This document shows positions 22,804 through 43,513 of a DNA stretch of 64,000 nt, piece after piece (positions within the stretch are counted from its first letter, which is position 1; every line of letters begins with the position of its first letter). The translations under genes and the position numbers were made by a program. This stretch comes from a virus (lineage: Duplodnaviria; Heunggongvirae; Uroviricota; Caudoviricetes), in IMG/VR virus record IMGVR_UViG_2740892219_000010, positions 1-64,000 of that record; one strand, written 5' to 3'. The notes beneath the pieces were generated by a model. That model did not search any database. It saw nothing but the letters and a program-made list of their open reading frames with translations, and was not told where the DNA came from.

Positions 22804-23096
22804 CAGATAAACTCCTCATCGCGCCAGATAGCCAGTGTTCTGAAAACTCCCTCAGCGTGCATCAACAACAATGAGTCGTACTCGTAATCCGTTTTTGTAC
22901 GTCCGTCGATGGCATCGTGACACGCACTGCAGGCGATAGCGCCCTGCATATCGTGAGGTTTGATGGCTGTGCCGCACGTTCCGGCGAGACGATAATGAGC
23001 CAGTACGCTGGTTTCAGGATTGTGATTGCACACACCGGGGATACGCACAGTACAAGCGCGACTGCGTGCAGCTTTTCTCAGGTCGATTTTTTTCAT
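22803..23096 (-). CDS. Cys-rich nin-region protein (DUF1364/YbcO-like)
   Basis: 97 aa with several Cys/His (CTVRIPGVCNHNP...CSACHDAIDGR); overlaps the Q start by 1 nt. Confidence 0.45.
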   Translation of the reverse strand: MKKIDLRKAARSRACTVRIPGVCNHNPETSVLAHYRLAGTCGTAIKPHDMQGAIACSACHDAIDGRTKTDYEYDSLLLMHAEGVFRTLAIWRDEEFI

Positions 23097-23689
23097 GATG
23101 TGTAATCCAGCAGCTGCGCGGCGGCATTTTCAGCGGCCTCCTGAGAGGCAAATGTGCGGAACAAAATATAATTCCACAGCACATCTAAAACGGCTGAATA
23201 CAGTTGACCGAACTCAAGATCGTCCATCGCTGCAAACGAGATTGAACGAGGTACGCGCATCAAACTGCCGTCTGGCATCTGATGAACGTCATAAAACCCA
23301 GCTTCCATAATCGCCCATGCGCGAAACGCCTCGAACGACTTCACCGCACTGATACTCCCCGCGCGCTTTTCCGACTCATCGAGAAGATACTGATCAGCCA
23401 GCTCTGCCATGACATCACCGTGTCCACCGTAATACGCCAGTAACTTAACGTAGCCGTGAACCAGTTCGCGCTCCGCAGGAGAAATAGCCCCTCCGGACGG
23501 ATGCCAGTAATCAAAGCCCAGGTTGAGAAGTGAGAAAAATTTACGATGAAACGCGGGATTACGCGCCTGTTTGAAATCTGCATACACAACAGCACCTGGT
23601 TTGACTCGTTCAGTCAACCAGCGTTGCGTGTCTGGTGTCGCGGGTATTAGCGAACCGCCGGATACCCTGATAAATGAATGCTGCGCCAT
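23093..23689 (-). CDS. nin-region protein of unknown function
   Basis: 198-aa ORF translationally coupled to the downstream gene; no recognised catalytic motif. Confidence 0.45.
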   Translation of the reverse strand: MAQHSFIRVSGGSLIPATPDTQRWLTERVKPGAVVYADFKQARNPAFHRKFFSLLNLGFDYWHPSGGAISPAERELVHGYVKLLAYYGGHGDVMAELADQYLLDESEKRAGSISAVKSFEAFRAWAIMEAGFYDVHQMPDGSLMRVPRSISFAAMDDLEFGQLYSAVLDVLWNYILFRTFASQEAAENAAAQLLDYTS

Positions 23690-23773: not shown

Positions 23774-23968
23774 TCAGGGGGGTGTAATAGTATATCCAGC
23801 TATTTCTGCCAACTCGAGAAACGCCATCAGGCTGGCAATCCGCTCATCATCGGTCAGAACACGCACACCAACGATGTGTCCGTCCTTACGCTTGATAACA
23901 GCCCGGCATGTTTCCGGTAGTTCGCCTATAGATTCTTGAATATTCATGTCTTCCCCCCAATGCCACAA
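23774..23968 (-). CDS. hypothetical small protein
   Basis: 64-aa ORF (possible internal start MNIQ); no recognised family. Confidence 0.3.
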   Translation of the reverse strand: MWHWGEDMNIQESIGELPETCRAVIKRKDGHIVGVRVLTDDERIASLMAFLELAEIAGYTITPP

Positions 23969-24098
23969 CCTGTATATTTATACAGTATTTTATGGCATTT
24001 GTCATAACGCCAAATACAATGAGGGAATAATGAACAATTATATTCACGTCGTGAATTTTATTAAACGGTTTTATAGGGGATTAAACCGTTTATGGTCA

Positions 24099-24983: not shown

Positions 24984-25217
24984 ATGGGTACGTTAGGCAA
25001 CCAGCCGTGCAGAAGTCGTTATGAGTTCGATGATTTTAATTTAGCCAATCGAGCTGCGGCTCTTACTAAGTTAGCAAAAGAAACTGGTGTATCGGTGGAT
25101 ACCTTAATCAAACTTGAAATTGCTATGCAACTGAATCGGCTCAACTCCATCCTTATCGAAAACGGTGACAAGATGGACGAGAATCTGGCAGGTATTGGCG
25201 AGATACTGCAGAAGTGA
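24984..25217 (+). CDS. small protein, possible helix-turn-helix regulator
   Basis: 77 aa; RBS GAGGAA; segment LTKLAKETGVSVDTLIKLEIA is HTH-like; followed by hairpin CCCCTC-TTCT-GAGGGG at 25222-25240. Confidence 0.4.
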   Translation: MGTLGNQPCRSRYEFDDFNLANRAAALTKLAKETGVSVDTLIKLEIAMQLNRLNSILIENGDKMDENLAGIGEILQK

Positions 25218-25615
25218 GAGTAGCCCCTCTTCTGAGGGGTTGCACATTTAAAATATTAAGGGCGGTCTTCTTCACGTACACAGTCACCTGGTCGAATCGT
25301 TCACGCATACTGAGTACAAAAAATCTCAACGATAAGATCAGGTTAGACCTGTATTTTTCAGAAACATATGGACGCCTAAAAAAACACTAAACTCATGATT
25401 ATCATGTATGTTTTTACTGGAAACATTGAACCATCCACAATACAGCGTAAAAAGCAAGCAATTCACAAGATTTTAAAGTGATTTATCTGGAAGACTTTAC
25501 TACTAACAGTTAATATCGTACCAGAAGTGCAGAATTTGCACTTTTACAGGAATGTGGTACGGAACATGCTGTCTATATTTCAACCAATAATCGTAATGCA
25601 GTAACTGGAGGAGCT

Positions 25616-26104
25616 ATGGCTACCAACCCAAGAGAGCACGCCCGGCGAGTGCTGGACACGTTCTGGTGCGGGCGTGGTTTCCCTGTTGATCCAGCGAAAA
25701 TTGCTCACGACATGGGATTAGATGTTTTTATTACCGATCTTCCTGGGAAAGTTTCTGGCGCACTGATTAAACAAAAAGATCAAGATCCAGCGATCTTTCT
25801 AAACAGTGATGACAACAAAGTTCGTCAACGTTTTTCATGTGGGCATGAGTTGGGGCATTACATCGCCCGGCAAGCATCGCATAGCGATGAATATGAGTAC
25901 GTTGATTTACGTGGCGAAACCGCAAGCGCCGGAACGCATCCTGATGAAATTTTTGCGAACAAGTTCGCAGCAGAACTTCTGATGCCGGTTGATGAGGTCA
26001 GAAAACTGCACGCTGACGGTCAACCAAGTTATATAATGGCGCATTATTTTGGCGTATCTGACGATGCGATGACTTATCGTTTAAAGAACTTGAGGTTGGG
26101 GTAA
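25616..26104 (+). CDS. ImmA/IrrE-family zinc metallopeptidase
   Basis: 162 aa with HEXXH motif (CGHELGHY) and downstream E in the ImmA/IrrE arrangement; strong RBS (GGAGGAG). Confidence 0.75.
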   Translation: MATNPREHARRVLDTFWCGRGFPVDPAKIAHDMGLDVFITDLPGKVSGALIKQKDQDPAIFLNSDDNKVRQRFSCGHELGHYIARQASHSDEYEYVDLRGETASAGTHPDEIFANKFAAELLMPVDEVRKLHADGQPSYIMAHYFGVSDDAMTYRLKNLRLG

Positions 26105-26113
26105 CGCTTTAAA

Positions 26114-26719
26114 ATGCCATCGGATGATGATTTTAACAGCCGTTTCAAACAGGAAGTTGCACGCCGACTGAAGGATTCCCTCAACCTACACCGCCAGTTA
26201 GCAGAAGAGGTTGAGCCGGAGGACGATGAAACTCCGGTTCAGTCTCCTGACGAAGCTTCACCTCAGCCAAAGGTTTCGCACGCCCCCAAAAAAACGGCTG
26301 TCCGTATTCGCGGAATAGCCAGAAAACGAGCTGCCGAAGCTCGCAAAATGGCTGTAGCTGCATCTAGCAAAAGAATTCCAACTGTTACACCCTCTCAACA
26401 AGTCACCCGTACTGAGAGTAAAATCTTGACCGAGTTCACATCTGTGAAACAGGTGAATTCACTTGATACCGAGCATGAGCGCAAACAACTCAACAACAAA
26501 GATTTTGAAGCAGAAATCGCTCTAAAAAAACGATACGGGAAATGGTTCCTGATTATCCTTGCTTTCCAACTTCTGATAATGAATGGTGTATTTATTGCCG
26601 ACGGCGCAGGTAAGCTGGAATTTGAGGATTTAACACTACAGTTGTACATGGGCGGTACTTTGACAGAGGTATTCGGCCTCGTGCTGGTCGTGACAAAATA
26701 CCTTTTTAAACGCAAGTAA
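26114..26719 (+). CDS. membrane protein with acidic/Pro-rich N-terminal region and two C-terminal TM helices
   Basis: 201 aa; starts 10 nt after the peptidase gene; C-terminal TM helices (WFLIILAFQLLIMNGVFIA and LTEVFGLVLVVTKYLF). Its last ~72 nt are duplicated at 31245-31316. Confidence 0.6.
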   Translation: MPSDDDFNSRFKQEVARRLKDSLNLHRQLAEEVEPEDDETPVQSPDEASPQPKVSHAPKKTAVRIRGIARKRAAEARKMAVAASSKRIPTVTPSQQVTRTESKILTEFTSVKQVNSLDTEHERKQLNNKDFEAEIALKKRYGKWFLIILAFQLLIMNGVFIADGAGKLEFEDLTLQLYMGGTLTEVFGLVLVVTKYLFKRK

Positions 26720-27356: not shown

Positions 27357-27734
27357 TCAATAGAGTATTCTCATCGAAGAAATAACCTCATAAAATGTAA
27401 AGACAGCCAGCAAAAAAATACAGATAAAGATAAGGGAAATAGCACACTTAACTAAGGACTGAATCCCCCGAGGTGTTCCCCATGGTTTAGACATTTGGGT
27501 TATAACCCAAATAAATAAGGCCATAAAACAGCAAACACCAGCCAATCCGAGCAGAGATATTATGACAACTCCAAATAGATTTCCAACATCTAGTTTATCT
27601 GTTTTTGCAACTAGGGTTAACAAACCAGCAATAATAGTTGCTATCGATATTCCCGCAATGGTTGTGAGATCAGCGATAACAGCCAGTTTTTCTTTAGTAT
27701 TTCCTTGAGTAAAAACCTCTAAAATTGATTTCAT
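27357..27734 (-). CDS. small integral membrane protein (cargo cassette 1)
   Basis: 125 aa, 3 predicted TM helices, RBS AGGTGG; AT-rich codon usage unlike the phage backbone. Confidence 0.6.
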   Translation of the reverse strand: MKSILEVFTQGNTKEKLAVIADLTTIAGISIATIIAGLLTLVAKTDKLDVGNLFGVVIISLLGLAGVCCFMALFIWVITQMSKPWGTPRGIQSLVKCAISLIFICIFLLAVFTFYEVISSMRILY

Positions 27735-28176: not shown

Positions 28177-28653
28177 TTGAAATTTGAACAAATCTATAAA
28201 AATATTACTGGCCTTAGCTGTCCCATATTCGGGATTCAGTGGAATGCTCCAATAATAGAAACTGACGAAGCGAAGAAGTTCGTCATTTTTCTTGAGGACA
28301 AGCGCGTTCTTTTCAATCCTGTCGACATGGAGGGTGCTAGTCATTGCACTTCGAGTGTTATCAACATTAGATCTGAATTGACTAAAGTCCTACAAGGTTT
28401 GCCGAGCGATTCACATTTAGCAAAACAATTAAGGAAAATGAGAAAAGCATGCCAAGAATTCTGTGACAGCGTTGGCTCCCCTCACTTTATCCAACTTGAT
28501 CATCCTGTTCAAATATCCATACTTGAGCGAGCCCTTTTTAAACTGCGACAAAAGTGTGGTAACTCTCTGGCAGAAATAGCGGTTACCTATGGTCTTGATG
28601 TTGATGACGGATTGGCCAGTATTATCCCTTTTAATAATCCCAGTAACATATAG
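28177..28653 (+). CDS. hypothetical soluble protein (cargo cassette 2)
   Basis: 158 aa, TTG start with RBS AAGGAG 6 nt upstream; no recognised family. Confidence 0.5.
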   Translation: MKFEQIYKNITGLSCPIFGIQWNAPIIETDEAKKFVIFLEDKRVLFNPVDMEGASHCTSSVINIRSELTKVLQGLPSDSHLAKQLRKMRKACQEFCDSVGSPHFIQLDHPVQISILERALFKLRQKCGNSLAEIAVTYGLDVDDGLASIIPFNNPSNI

Positions 28654-28933: not shown

Positions 28934-29689
28934 CTATTCCTTGGCCTCTTTATTCTTCTCGCCATCGCCAATATAAATAAGATAGTCGTTTAAGGATATC
29001 CTTCCGGAGGGACCGGTCCATGTTATCAATCCGTTTTCACGAAGATTAAATAATGCTTCCATGAACTCATTATCGTTAAAAGAATGATCTTCTGAGAACA
29101 GAATGTTCATTTTTCTCAATAGTTCTTCCACTTTAATCTTTTCATATCGCCTTATCAGACTTAGTGCTCTACGACGCATTAAGACTGTAGGTACTGCTTG
29201 TGAACGAATGGTTTTTTGTATTCCACTATCAAGAACTTTCTTAATCTTACTCTCTAATTCTTTGATTTTAGTTTCATTATCTCCATTGGACTTAAGCTTT
29301 TCATCAACGATACAAATAATCTCCTGACTAATGCGGTTCTTGAGTTTGTTTATTTTTTCTTCATTGTTGAGGATCTCATCAGAGCTTCCTGCATGGGGTT
29401 TTTTCCATATGTGCTGACGCATATCCGTTACCGTATCTCTCATCATAGAGAATGTATCTGAATATAACTTGTCAAATATTTTTTCCAGTCGTTCGACACT
29501 TGCCTGGATGTCTTTTGCTGCTTTAGTTGTCTCTTTAGAAGCCTCATTCGACATTTTATAAAAAACAAAAGAAAGCCAAATAGCCCCAATGGCGAGTACT
29601 AATGAGGCTATTGTGGCAATAAAACCTATTATTGTTATTGCTGTATCTAATGTACCTGCTGCATCTGTGACTACTGTTTCTGCTGCCAT
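28934..29689 (-). CDS. membrane-anchored coiled-coil protein (cargo cassette 3)
   Basis: 251 aa; RBS GAGGA; N-terminal hydrophobic segment (IIGFIATIASLVLAIGAIWLSFVFY), Lys/Glu-rich coiled coil, C-terminal globular region. Confidence 0.6.
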   Translation of the reverse strand: MAAETVVTDAAGTLDTAITIIGFIATIASLVLAIGAIWLSFVFYKMSNEASKETTKAAKDIQASVERLEKIFDKLYSDTFSMMRDTVTDMRQHIWKKPHAGSSDEILNNEEKINKLKNRISQEIICIVDEKLKSNGDNETKIKELESKIKKVLDSGIQKTIRSQAVPTVLMRRRALSLIRRYEKIKVEELLRKMNILFSEDHSFNDNEFMEALFNLRENGLITWTGPSGRISLNDYLIYIGDGEKNKEAKE

Positions 29690-30125: not shown

Positions 30126-30953
<828 letters not shown>

Positions 30954-31205: not shown

Positions 31206-31244
31206 TGCCAGCTTAGTCATCAAGTGCATATTTAACTGTTTTAT

Positions 31245-31316
31245 ATGGGCGGTACTTTGACAGAGGTATTCGGTCTCGTGCTGGTCGTGGTCAAATACCT
31301 TTTTAAACGCAAATAG
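31245..31316 (+). pseudogene. 3' gene remnant: diverged copy of the last ~24 codons of the 26114-26719 membrane-protein gene
   Basis: Translates MGGTLTEVFGLVLVVVKYLFKRK*, ~92% nt identity to 26648-26719; upstream in-frame stop at 31233-31235, so no full ORF. Confidence 0.6.
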
Positions 31317-31340: not shown

Positions 31341-32177
31341 TCAAAATGCTGAATTAGCAACGGATATAGCCGACTTTTTCCCCATTACCATCAATTTATC
31401 CAGTGTCATACTTCGCAGGTTGTCGCTGTGGATCACCAGATACCCTGCCCGCTCAGCGATCTCTTTGAAAGCGTCAAAAGTCATCAGATGTTCGCCTTTG
31501 GCAACATGGCGCATCCTGGTCACTTTTCCATTTTTGATAGTGGTGATAAAAGAAAAATCCGGAATGGTTGGCTGATTTTCATCGAGTAGCAGGCAGTGGA
31601 TGTATTCAATCGCCTCTAACATTTGCGTCTGTGACAGTTGTTCTATGTGAGAGACGGCGAAGCGTTGATGAATCATGGTGTAGGCATCGGGATACATCAT
31701 GCCTTTCTTACCGACCAGCATATTAACGGCATCACGTAAGGGAGTACGGTCATCGGTAGTTGTACTCCGCCTCTCTGGACGCTGGCTAAAATAACAATCT
31801 TCCAGCTTTTCGAAAACTTCCCAGGCCTGTTCTGTTTCCAGCATTTTGGCATGGCGAGCTGCGCCGCGTTCTGTCCAGAGAATGAGGGATCGGGTATGTT
31901 TAGCAACTGACTGACTATCTGTCAGTCTGTTTTTGAAGTCGCGTAATTCATTACCTTCCAGCTTAAAAAAATGCTTTCCTACGACAAATCTGGCGATGTT
32001 GCGCTTGAAGTTTTGCTGGATACCATTTACTTCCGTGCCATACAAACTGGCAAGCAATTCAGTAGTGATGACGGGAAGTTGGTTATGATGTAGCGGAGAA
32101 AGGGATTCCGCAGATATTTGGATTGTCATCGCAGTGGCCTCACTTAGTGTTTTTTTCATCACCACCAGCGACGCCAA
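31341..32177 (-). CDS. phage antirepressor (N-terminal Ant/ORF6N-type and C-terminal KilAC-type region)
   Basis: 278 aa; N-terminus MTIQISAESLSPLHHNQLPVITTELLASLYGTEVNGIQQNFKRNIARFVVGKHFFKLEG resembles antirepressor N-terminal domains as recalled; own upstream region with a minus-strand terminator at ~32290-32310. Confidence 0.65.
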   Translation of the reverse strand: MASLVVMKKTLSEATAMTIQISAESLSPLHHNQLPVITTELLASLYGTEVNGIQQNFKRNIARFVVGKHFFKLEGNELRDFKNRLTDSQSVAKHTRSLILWTERGAARHAKMLETEQAWEVFEKLEDCYFSQRPERRSTTTDDRTPLRDAVNMLVGKKGMMYPDAYTMIHQRFAVSHIEQLSQTQMLEAIEYIHCLLLDENQPTIPDFSFITTIKNGKVTRMRHVAKGEHLMTFDAFKEIAERAGYLVIHSDNLRSMTLDKLMVMGKKSAISVANSAF

Positions 32178-32401
32178 TCATCTGGTGGTGAACTGTGCAG
32201 GGTTGGCGTAACCGGCTAAGTGAACCCGGCGCTTCCACAGAAGCCCCCACACAGCCCACCATAATGCGAATGTGGCCGTGCCTAACACATAAAAAAACCG
32301 CTAACGCGGCTATGCGTCACTTAGATATCCGGGACGCCAATCCCGGCAACCGATTTTGCGGCTGCGCGGAAACTATAGCCCCGGACTTTTTCTAAGTCAA
32401 T

Positions 32402-37213: not shown

Positions 37214-37311
37214 ATGGACTCCTTGTGTCCGCGTCATCATTACAAACAATAACTGTAATTACAAATTATATTTGCAATGCTCCCTACAATTAAACCTTGT
37301 ATCCTTACGGT
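37214..37311. promoter_or_regulatory. oR-like divergent promoter/operator region
   Basis: Repeated half-sites ATTACAAAC, CTGTAATT, TTACAAATT, TTTGCAAT; minus-strand TATAAT (plus 37265-37270) suitable for a pR driving cro. Confidence 0.5.
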
Positions 37312-37725
37312 ATGAACACAAAAACGAAAAACATGGCTTTTGCTAGCCGACTACAACGGATTCTAAAAGACTTAGGCTGGTCTCAATCTGAGTTAGCTCG
37401 CCATATTGGGGTTACGGCTCAATCAGTTCAGGCATGGTGTAATGGGGTAACTCCAAGAAAAGATAAATTAGACAAGCTAGCAAAAGTGACCGGATACCCT
37501 GTTCATTTTTTCTTCATGAATGAAGGGGAATATTTGGATGAATCCACACTACACCCGGGTAATTACAATCAAGAACTAACCCCGCAAGAACAGGCTCTAC
37601 TGCAACTATTCAGAGGACTGCCTGAGAGCGAAAAAAATAAATTAATCAATGAGCTAAAAGAAAAAAGAGAGCACTTCGATCTACTGCTAAAAGAACTACT
37701 TGAAGCCAAAAACCAGACAAAATAG
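37312..37725 (+). CDS. CI-like repressor (XRE-family HTH, no S24 peptidase domain)
   Basis: ~138 aa; HTH segment (SQSELARHIGVTAQSVQAWCNG); no Ser/Lys autopeptidase domain; start uncertain (37297, 37312 or 37333) with no SD, so possibly leaderless. Confidence 0.7.
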   Translation: MNTKTKNMAFASRLQRILKDLGWSQSELARHIGVTAQSVQAWCNGVTPRKDKLDKLAKVTGYPVHFFFMNEGEYLDESTLHPGNYNQELTPQEQALLQLFRGLPESEKNKLINELKEKREHFDLLLKELLEAKNQTK

Positions 37726-42264: not shown

Positions 42265-42528
42265 ATGAAAAGCGATCACGACATAATCACCAGAGAAGAA
42301 ATGGTCGAGCTGACGGGAAGCCCACTTAAATCAAAGCAATGTGAGGCTCTTCGCCGGGCTGGAATTTTCTTCATGGAAAGGGCTGACGGACACCCAAAAA
42401 CAACCTGGGGCCATTTCATGAACCCAATAAAATTTCGCAATTTACAGGAGGTGACGACGCGAAAAGATGATGAACCTGATTTTGGAGCAATATTTAATGG
42501 CCGGAAAGAGAAAGAACCCAGCAGATAA
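42265..42528 (+). CDS. excisionase-like protein (positional)
   Basis: 87 aa immediately upstream of and overlapping int; start preceded by ATGAGGAAAGACC. Confidence 0.4.
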   Translation: MKSDHDIITREEMVELTGSPLKSKQCEALRRAGIFFMERADGHPKTTWGHFMNPIKFRNLQEVTTRKDDEPDFGAIFNGRKEKEPSR

Positions 42529-43513
42529 CTGGATGCCGCCTCGTGTTTACCAGGGCAAAGCGGCCTACGAATTCAGGAATAAAGATAACAAAGCGATACG
42601 CCTGTGCGCATTGGATGCACCACGATCAGCCGTATGGCTGGCATATGAAAAAGCGGTCGGTGACGAAAAAGAAAGAAATACTTTTCAGGCGCTCGCGGAA
42701 CAATTCATGACCTCCCCTGATTTTATGGATTTGGCAGTCGAAACCAGGAAAGACTACACAAAATATTCCGGAAAAGTTCTGCCTGTCTTCGGGAAGATCG
42801 ACCCGGATAAAATCAAACCTGAACATATTCGGCGCTATATGGATCAACGCGGTTTATCAAGCCGAACTCAGGCAAACAGGGAAAAAAGCTTTATGTCCCG
42901 GGTATTCCGTTGGGGTTATGAACGAGGTTATGTTCAGAGGAATCCTTGTCAGGGAGTTAAACAGTTTAAAGAGACAGCTCGCGAACGTTATATTACGGAT
43001 GAAGAATATCAGGCCGTTTATGAAGTGTCTCCTGACGTCGTTCGCGTGGCAATGGAGATTGCCTACTTATGCGTGGCCAGACAGAGTGATGTACTTTCAT
43101 TGCAGAAAGACCAACTGTTCGATTCCGGGATCTACATTCGTCAGGGAAAAACCGGCGTTAAGCAAATCAAAGCCTGGTCGCCTCGTCTGCAGAAAGCGAT
43201 AGCTCTGGCTCGTTCTCTGCCATTAAAAACGGGAATCAGTAGTCTGTTTGTGATTCATCAAACTACCGGTGGCAAGTACACCCGTGATGGTTTTAACTCT
43301 CGTTGGCGTGATGTCAAAGCTGCGGCACAGGAAAAATATCCTCATCTGCAAATAGACTTCACATTTCATGATCTGAAAGCAAAAGGTATCTCTGATCTGG
43401 AAGGCAGCCTGGAAGAGAAGCAAGCAATTTCCGGGCATAAGAACCCACGACAGACAGCAGCATATGACCGAAAAGTTAAAGTAGTGCCCGTAGTTGGTGG
43501 CCAGAGAAAATGA
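42467..43513 (+). CDS. int: tyrosine integrase (lambda Int family)
   Basis: 348 aa; C-terminal catalytic region (FHDLKAKGISDLEG...GHKNPRQTAAYDRK); transcribed toward the tRNA-Leu core. Confidence 0.85.
   Translation: MMNLILEQYLMAGKRKNPADNWMPPRVYQGKAAYEFRNKDNKAIRLCALDAPRSAVWLAYEKAVGDEKERNTFQALAEQFMTSPDFMDLAVETRKDYTKYSGKVLPVFGKIDPDKIKPEHIRRYMDQRGLSSRTQANREKSFMSRVFRWGYERGYVQRNPCQGVKQFKETARERYITDEEYQAVYEVSPDVVRVAMEIAYLCVARQSDVLSLQKDQLFDSGIYIRQGKTGVKQIKAWSPRLQKAIALARSLPLKTGISSLFVIHQTTGGKYTRDGFNSRWRDVKAAAQEKYPHLQIDFTFHDLKAKGISDLEGSLEEKQAISGHKNPRQTAAYDRKVKVVPVVGGQRK

Follow-up and report, generated by a model that had tools for sequence, protein, structure and literature searches.

RosmerTA systems pair a variable toxin with an antitoxin that is a zinc peptidase of the COG2856/M78 family, and the classical representatives (Millman et al. 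2022; E. coli E101, Rousset et al. 2021; pneumococcal RipAB/Spr1630-1629) are two-gene toxin-antitoxin (TA) loci of mobile elements that act in phage defence. The closest described system to the one considered here comes from Gordonia phage Kita, whose gp32 (YP_009301393) and gp33 (YP_009301394) are the validated pair RmrA-D25 and RmrT-D5 (Ernits et al., PNAS 2023, PMC10440598). The C-terminal region of RmrT-D5 is located in the membrane, and expression of the protein leads to rapid depolarisation, permeabilisation and pore formation. RmrA-D25, an ImmA-type peptidase, partially neutralises RmrT-D5, and the native Kita operon protects E. coli against Bas54 and Bas59 (PMC10440598). For other RosmerTA systems, ClpXP dependence has been shown, rmrA has been found essential by transposon sequencing (Tn-seq) in three Pectobacteriaceae carrying RosmerTA, and partner swapping has been described for the ImmA/Rosmer zone of the NetFlax network. 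We analysed a 64,000-nucleotide stretch of viral DNA (Caudoviricetes; IMG/VR record IMGVR_UViG_2740892219_000010, positions 1 to 64,000; hereafter the window) that carries, on its plus strand, an open reading frame (ORF) for a 162-residue peptidase followed by one for a 201-residue membrane protein. It is likely that these two genes constitute a RosmerTA-type TA and anti-phage defence cassette of the RmrA-D25/RmrT-D5 subtype, carried as a prophage moron under its own promoter and antisense to the early-right operon.

A preliminary description of the locus had identified the first product, an HEXXH protein, as an ImmA/IrrE-type metallopeptidase, and this assignment is borne out by Pfam (PF06114, E 7.7e-18, residues 32-157); the protein also matches phrog_87, 'metallo-protease'. 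All 24 relatives of the peptidase that were compared, down to 34% identity, keep H77-E78-x-x-H81 and the third ligand E111. The HExxH…E zinc site of the window protein is intact, and the protein is not a dead enzyme, a case that the preliminary description had allowed for. Over its full length the peptidase is 43% identical to Kita gp32 (E 1e-41), and when isolated phages were searched by tblastn, the best non-self matches were Gordonia phages including Kita (44% identity, 93% query coverage, E 5e-31 for this group). Searches with PADLOC matched the peptidase to capP (2.4e-25) and to RmrA models (down to 5.8e-12). The RmrA models align through the peptidase core alone, for example at positions 166-266 of 363, while the capP model is matched at 3-151 of 242 only, the peptidase ending at residue 162. 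PDB entry 7t5t is likewise the best Protein Data Bank match of the peptidase domain (E 1.7e-4), though over catalytic core residues 60-132 only. This likeness to CapP, which acts with CapH in the cyclic oligonucleotide-based antiphage signalling system (CBASS; Lau et al. 2022; PDB 7T5T), is therefore one of domain, whereas the window peptidase lacks the C-terminal domain of CapP, and neither a CapH HTH (helix-turn-helix) partner nor a CBASS operon is present within several kb of it. As a control, the Kita proteins were submitted to PADLOC and behaved as the window proteins do, with the peptidase matching capP and RmrA cores and the toxin matching nothing. Defence-finding tools call neither pair because PADLOC matches only the peptidase cores and no toxin.

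The second gene encodes a protein for which the preliminary description had proposed an acidic, Pro-rich N-terminus and two C-terminal transmembrane (TM) helices. An acidic, Pro-rich linker and a C-terminal helical hairpin were both confirmed; of the two TM helices, Kyte-Doolittle analysis calls only the first (142-165) classically hydrophobic. An AlphaFold2 (AF2) model of the protein has a mean predicted local distance difference test (pLDDT) score of 76, rising above 90 in the C-terminal 80 residues, and comprises an N-terminal helix (4-32) and a hairpin (119-164 and 172-197) separated by the acidic/Pro-rich linker, which is modelled at low confidence. The second hairpin helix is amphipathic and bears the near-invariant Glu185. 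In an alignment of 58 members of the toxin family, Q152, L153, E185 and the C-terminal L197-F198 (YLF motif) are near-invariant, and the juxtamembrane helix (~117-143) is the element kept throughout the family; the N-terminal helix and the variable acidic/Pro-rich linker are restricted to Enterobacterales. Topology was inferred from the positive-inside rule: KKRYGK before the hairpin, an acidic loop and KRK at the end point to a cytoplasmic location of both termini. No model of Pfam, PADLOC or NCBIfam matches the 201-residue protein, no consistent family emerges from these databases among the 58 diverse members, and a fold search of the Protein Data Bank with the AF2 model returned no match.

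Similarity to the Kita toxin, though weaker than that of the peptidases, is significant. The profile built from the 58-member alignment aligns to Kita gp33 by hhalign (96.9%, E 1.8e-10) in a match that takes in the juxtamembrane helix and the two helices of the hairpin, and hmmsearch with the same profile recovers gp33 at 8.4e-13; in a pairwise BLASTP comparison, the window toxin shares 32% identity with gp33 over 57 residues (E 1e-6). The enterobacterial toxin profile, run exhaustively with HMMER and counted over clusters at 50% identity, yielded 670 representatives at E ≤ 1e-3 and 185 at E ≤ 1e-10. The best 150 of the 670 are all small proteins (49-236 residues) that match through the C-terminal hairpin. 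The earlier suggestion that the peptidase and the TM protein form a functional couple thus proved essentially right, both being homologous to the RmrA/RmrT pair.

The two genes also travel together. They are tightly coupled, lying 9 nucleotides apart, and the gap in relatives ranges from -17 to +12 nucleotides. We compared the window with 11 other contexts, from Klebsiella oxytoca, Serratia, two E. coli lineages, Enterobacter, Cronobacter, Salmonella (twice), Plesiomonas, Pectobacterium and Silvimonas; a strict-pattern scan of genome contigs yielded 3 loci. All 11 contexts have a gene for an M78 peptidase of 160-162 residues followed, after 0-11 nucleotides, by a gene for a homologous two-helix membrane protein. 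The map position of this cassette varies: it lies outside the integrase at a tRNA attachment (att) site, between the late antiterminator and holin genes, in the replication/nin interval, or inside a P4-like satellite that also encodes primase and AlpA. Three lineages have it beside int/att and two relatives between late antiterminator and holin/lysis genes, and in the window prophage it occupies the replication/nin position. Across 66 pairwise comparisons, which lack phylogenetic independence, divergence of the peptidase correlates with that of the toxin (r 0.95). The peptidase and the membrane protein are thus an autonomous two-gene cassette that recurs in prophages, in a satellite-like element and in a prophage remnant. 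Programmed readthrough fusing the two proteins was considered, as the ORFs share a frame in the window, and was rejected because they are in different frames in 4 of 12 relatives.

Two of these contexts carry further points of interest. In Salmonella (L015/L016, 5503-6468), the pair is located between a Bax1-I family gene and a truncated integrase gene and adjoins pipA, pipB and sopB of Salmonella pathogenicity island 5 (SPI-5); it is the surviving cassette of a decayed prophage at the border of that island. In the Cronobacter prophage, the pair is found in cargo with hok/gef and parDE, and farther off are genes for a heat-labile-enterotoxin-like A subunit (Enterotoxin_a/Scabin-like) and an LT-IIB-like B subunit.

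A wider view was obtained from a census of viral contigs, 390 stretches of which encode relatives of the peptidase. We took the best 80, of which 79 had room downstream. A gene of the D5 family directly follows the peptidase gene in 42 of the 79, another small TM protein in 33 (with one to three predicted TM segments) and something else in 4. With 42 D5-family and 33 other small membrane partners, the picture is therefore TA-like with occasional partner swapping, and these sequences suggest that the toxin partner may have been exchanged while the design of a peptidase followed by a membrane protein was retained. In Mycobacterium phage Che9c, gp32-gp33 consist of a peptidase relative and then an unrelated small membrane protein.

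Further evidence comes from the distribution and decay of the cassette in E. coli and from its surroundings in the window. About 450 of 5,426 complete E. coli genomes (~8%) carry the cassette, always on the chromosome; among them are several strains labelled O25b:H4-ST131, such as EC958. An insertion sequence, IS1, lies within the cassette locus in five of the listed genomes, AR_451 among them. In AR_451, the one genome inspected (L120, 1315-2578), IS1 truncates the toxin after codon ~171, between the hairpin helices, and the peptidase is intact; this is the direction of decay predicted for a TA pair. In the window, a gene for PD-T4-3, a single-gene anti-phage defence protein, stands 3.4 kb downstream of the cassette in the variable region between the replication and nin genes, and because of its proximity to the RmrTA pair we regard this accessory region as a defence island. 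A CRISPR (clustered regularly interspaced short palindromic repeats) spacer of E. coli GCM39-10-2-9-3-1 (NZ_CM170158.1 324582-324614) is identical at 33 of 33 positions to 25679-25711 within the peptidase gene, and this strain does not carry the peptidase/toxin module.

Our assignment is based on the homology of both proteins, their synteny and coupling, the intact catalytic site, the distribution as a mobile cassette, the defence-island context and the toxin-side decay. Like the Kita pair, the cassette consists of a stand-alone M78 antitoxin without HTH and, after it, a small protein with a C-terminal membrane hairpin, encoded by tightly coupled or overlapping genes in the cargo of a temperate phage. 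The two differ in that the E. coli toxin has 201 residues and the Kita toxin 119, and in that the hosts of window-type cassettes are Gammaproteobacteria whereas that of Kita belongs to the Actinobacteria. Classical RosmerTA resembles the cassette as a two-gene TA system of mobile elements and phage defence with an M78 zinc-peptidase antitoxin, but its antitoxins are of ~360-400 residues with extra C-terminal regions, its toxin gene often comes first and its toxins are unrelated to the one in the window, RipA for instance targeting the DnaN clamp. Identity with the E. coli E101 system (Rousset et al. 2021) was considered and rejected; that system is of another subtype, with the toxin gene first and different proteins.

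Several points weigh against the assignment. The toxin shares little identity with Kita RmrT (about 30% within the hairpin), no PADLOC model matches the window toxin, and the N-terminal 115 residues of the E. coli toxin, with the conserved helix and the acidic/Pro-rich linker, have no counterpart in gp33, so that regulation could differ. The N-terminal Xre HTH of classical RosmerTA antitoxins is absent from the window peptidase as searched by Pfam, although Kita RmrA has no HTH either. The Kita system itself has a narrow defence spectrum, and AlphaFold prediction of the Kita complex failed, with a pDockQ of 0.05 (PMC10440598). The three protein accessions are not mentioned in the literature searched, which included part of the NetFlax supplement.

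By analogy with Kita, we propose the following mechanism, in which toxicity, depolarisation, partial neutralisation and defence are carried over from the literature on the homologue. RmrT would enter the inner membrane by its helical hairpin, its two ends and the ~140-residue N-terminal region staying in the cytoplasm, and free RmrT would oligomerise into pores and depolarise the cell. The cytoplasmic zinc peptidase RmrA, translated just ahead of it from the same mRNA, would hold RmrT harmless in the lysogen; we infer that it does so by acting on the cytoplasmic part of the toxin, either cleaving it or binding it. Infection would upset this balance, in that an incoming phage would disturb the RmrA/RmrT ratio, free the toxin and thereby shut the infected cell down by abortive infection while the phage cycle is still incomplete. 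By this logic the cassette would also be addictive and would therefore help to retain the prophage, or remnants of it, in the genome.

The polarity of this scheme could in principle be the reverse. Relatives such as CapP, ImmA and IrrE are signal-activated proteases, and conservation of the catalytic site is strict; on a phage or DNA-damage cue, the peptidase could cut the linker and release a pore from an inhibitory N-terminal helix, in the manner of bacterial gasdermins or CapP-type cleavage. The toxins of Enterobacterales have features that would suit such an arrangement, with a conserved N-terminal helix (pLDDT 88-94) and a disordered, tether-like linker of 0-100 residues. However, the TM protein of the validated homologue is toxic alone and the peptidase lowers its toxicity, in many members of the family the juxtamembrane helix is preceded by just 15-40 residues, with no N-terminal domain, and the 162-residue peptidase has neither a sensor domain nor the C-terminal part of CapP. 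The IS1 insertion that disrupts the TM gene and spares the peptidase also fits a toxin, not a harmless pro-form. We consider a protease-activated pore, the main mechanistic rival of the proposed TA pair, to be unlikely. In the enterobacterial toxins, the N-terminal helix and linker might act as a tether for docking or cleavage, and a doubtful but conceivable extension is that the peptidase controls the pore-former by site-specific cleavage of this cytoplasmic tether, with helix and linker as a docking-and-cleavage module and the peptidase possibly switched by a DNA-damage or single-stranded-DNA cue, as are CapP, ImmA and IrrE. If this were true, the cassette would be a proteolytically gated depolarisation switch coupling SOS or phage replication signals to cell shutdown, and tether cleavage would be the first mechanism for communication between a RosmerTA peptidase and its toxin. 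The pair might also benefit the phage without any role in defence, through pure addiction, tuning of lysis timing, or membrane exclusion of superinfecting DNA. Its location next to holin/lysis genes in two relatives, its addiction-module-like persistence in the decayed Salmonella remnant and its antisense orientation, by which lytic transcription of the early operon could silence it, would agree with such a function. Yet the position is not conserved (int/att in three lineages, replication/nin in the window), the homologous pair of Kita confers protection on E. coli against unrelated phages, and the window cassette has PD-T4-3 as a neighbour in a defence-island context. Addiction and defence are in any case compatible. 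We judge a module devoid of defence quite improbable.

The preliminary description had favoured a different function, pointing out that ImmA-type peptidases usually cleave a partner HTH repressor and naming as possible substrates the 77-residue product of an upstream ORF and the CI-like repressor. In such a scheme, the peptidase would act as an antirepressor upon a signal such as DNA damage, with the TM protein as an accessory. The peptidase belongs to the appropriate family, sharing with ImmA of ICEBs1 and with phage-type ImmA a size of ~160-170 residues and the HExxH…E site; homologues in Pseudoalteromonas phages (31% identical) are annotated 'antirepressor'; and the CI-like repressor does lack an autocleavage domain, as had been noted, having HTH_3 and no S24, like ImmR. 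The gene for ImmA, however, lies beside that of its substrate ImmR in a regulatory region, whereas the invariant partner of the window peptidase is a membrane protein, and neither in the window nor in any of the 11 other contexts does an HTH gene adjoin the peptidase gene. A distance of 11 kb separates the cassette from the immunity region, and its map position varies between prophages, independently of immunity regions. One of its carriers, a Plesiomonas prophage, encodes a CI with an S24 autocleavage domain of its own, and in the Salmonella remnant no repressor is left, only the truncated integrase. The 77-residue protein, for its part, does not resemble HTH proteins, and its gene has a separate terminator and is not inherited along with the pair. 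The prophage also contains more conventional induction candidates for an HTH-only repressor, which are better candidates than the peptidase: a small antirepressor-like gene controlled by a LexA box, whose 57-residue product is a candidate SOS-controlled antirepressor for the CI-like protein, and an Ant gene preceded by C4/isrK RNA elements, which are a P1/P7-type antisense control of Ant within a lambdoid prophage. Repressor cleavage therefore lacks support, cross-talk with the repressor is conceivable but likewise unsupported, an antirepressor function of the kind just described is highly improbable, and the peptidase is unlikely to be a switch acting on the phage repressor.

Upstream of the peptidase gene, the preliminary description had placed a ~400-nucleotide regulatory gap with palindromic elements. 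As a whole this gap is not conserved: alignments of four and then of twelve lineages upstream of the peptidase revealed conservation of the GGAGGA ribosome-binding site only, no convincing sigma-70 promoter candidate was found in the gap, and no Rfam family matches it. ARAGORN, used since some relatives are located at tRNA att sites, found no tRNA remnant there or elsewhere within the window. The palindrome GTGCAGAATTTGCAC is present and unique in the window but lies at 25527-25541, one base from where it had been reported; its 5-bp arms alone are within chance. It forms the core of a longer stem-loop (Table 1) with an outer stem CGTACCA/TGGTACG and an inner stem-loop AAGTGCA-GAATT-TGCACTT. 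A Salmonella relative keeps the outer stem and has other sequence between the arms, in which an inverted repeat AGAAGC/GCTTCT can be seen by eye; the fold there is weaker (z -2.35), and the inner structures of its minimum-free-energy and centroid predictions disagree. The stem-loop is not conserved in other lineages. It may be a 5'-leader structure or an operator, and its membership of the module is uncertain.

The ORF upstream of this gap had been described as encoding a small HTH-like protein and as the first member of a three-gene unit. All three plus-strand ORFs are present as first listed, at 24984-25217 (77 residues), 25616-26104 (162) and 26114-26719 (201). The 77-residue product has no match in Pfam or NCBIfam, and its AF2 model (pLDDT 82) is a two-helix hairpin (17-34 and 38-76) behind a disordered N-terminus, with which a fold search of the Protein Data Bank gave no significant match. 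Its stop codon is followed directly by a strong terminator-like hairpin (dG -20.4 kcal/mol, z -4.4). The family comprises 15 clusters, nearly all of near-identical E. coli sequences; a 53%-identical homologue stands alone on the strand opposite its neighbours in another prophage that lacks the pair, and the gene is absent from all 11 other contexts of the pair. A three-gene unit is thus unsupported because the 77-residue gene is an orphan without HTH signal, is closed by its own hairpin and does not occur beside other pairs. It is an unrelated neighbour and a separate transcription unit.

Table 1. Features of the window discussed in the text (positions are those of the 64,000-nucleotide stretch).
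Feature	Coordinates	Strand	Description
rmrA-like gene	25616-26104	+	Stand-alone M78 (ImmA/IrrE) zinc metallopeptidase, 162 residues; predicted antitoxin
rmrT-like gene	26114-26719	+	Membrane protein, 201 residues; by analogy a predicted pore-forming, membrane-depolarising toxin
Stem-loop	25518-25562	+	54-98 nucleotides upstream of the peptidase start; dG -18 kcal/mol, z -4.2
77-residue ORF with terminator-like hairpin	24984-25243	+	Lineage-restricted orphan; phrog_5550; conserved MGTLGNQ N-terminus
57-residue ORF	23774-23947	-	phrog_340; family also matches the C-terminal part of ORF6N antirepressor
LexA box	23970-23985		Near-consensus, CTGTATATTTATACAG; ~25 nucleotides upstream of the 57-residue ORF
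125-residue multi-TM protein gene	27357-27734	-	phrog_4155; cargo between RmrTA pair and PD-T4-3
DUF6650 protein gene	28177-28653	+	Cargo between RmrTA pair and PD-T4-3
251-residue protein gene	28934-29689	-	phrog_36054; cargo between RmrTA pair and PD-T4-3
PD-T4-3 gene	30126-30953	+	Single-gene anti-phage defence protein; PADLOC E 1.7e-137; LEM-3-like GIY-YIG domain
Fossil 3' end of a second rmrT	31235-31315	+	81 nucleotides, 90% identical to 26638-26718; encodes MGGTLTEVFGLVLVVVKYLFKRK*
ORF6N Ant (antirepressor) gene	31341-32177	-	
isrK, C4 antisense RNA and a1/b1 target	32181-32378	-	Rfam E 4e-16 (isrK) and 5e-13 (C4); directly upstream of the Ant gene
CI-like repressor gene	37297-37725		HTH_3 only; DicA-like

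From about position 1 to the integrase gene (42467-43513), the window is a hybrid lambdoid/P2-tail E. coli prophage, the minus strand of which encodes the structural, lysis, Q, nin and replication functions. The peptidase/TM module was correctly described as antisense to the surrounding phage genes, the flanking nin/Q and replication genes being on the other strand. It belongs to an accessory region of low G+C content (0.43, compared with 0.48 for the prophage) between ninB (23093-23689) and the replication genes. Three uncharacterised cargo genes between the pair and the PD-T4-3 gene encode products that match no PADLOC model; these genes may be additional candidates for a role in defence. 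The same region holds, immediately downstream of the Ant gene, a fossil of a second rmrT that retains the last 23 residues of the toxin and looks like the scar of an earlier cassette exchange. Most E. coli genomes that bear the module contain a second, partial match to the query (median 2 places per genome), and, judging from the repeat in the window, this second match is probably the rmrT fossil.

The pair is currently annotated as an 'ImmA/IrrE family metallo-endopeptidase' and a 'hypothetical protein'. Systems of this kind are known, one homologue with experimental validation among them; the pair of E. coli is itself uncharacterised, and no public model covers its toxin family. To a specialist the finding is no surprise, and it serves the annotation of ST131-type prophages and the building of a toxin-family model. 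The family, with its 670 representatives, is missed by defence-finding tools because it has no Pfam, PADLOC or NCBIfam model. The tempting but unsupported role of the peptidase as a prophage induction switch is removed, and recognition of the genes as RosmerTA adds a likely abortive-infection and addiction system to the cargo of this prophage, beside PD-T4-3. The small membrane protein that follows nearly every close relative of the peptidase suggests a general design in which a peptidase guards a membrane toxin.

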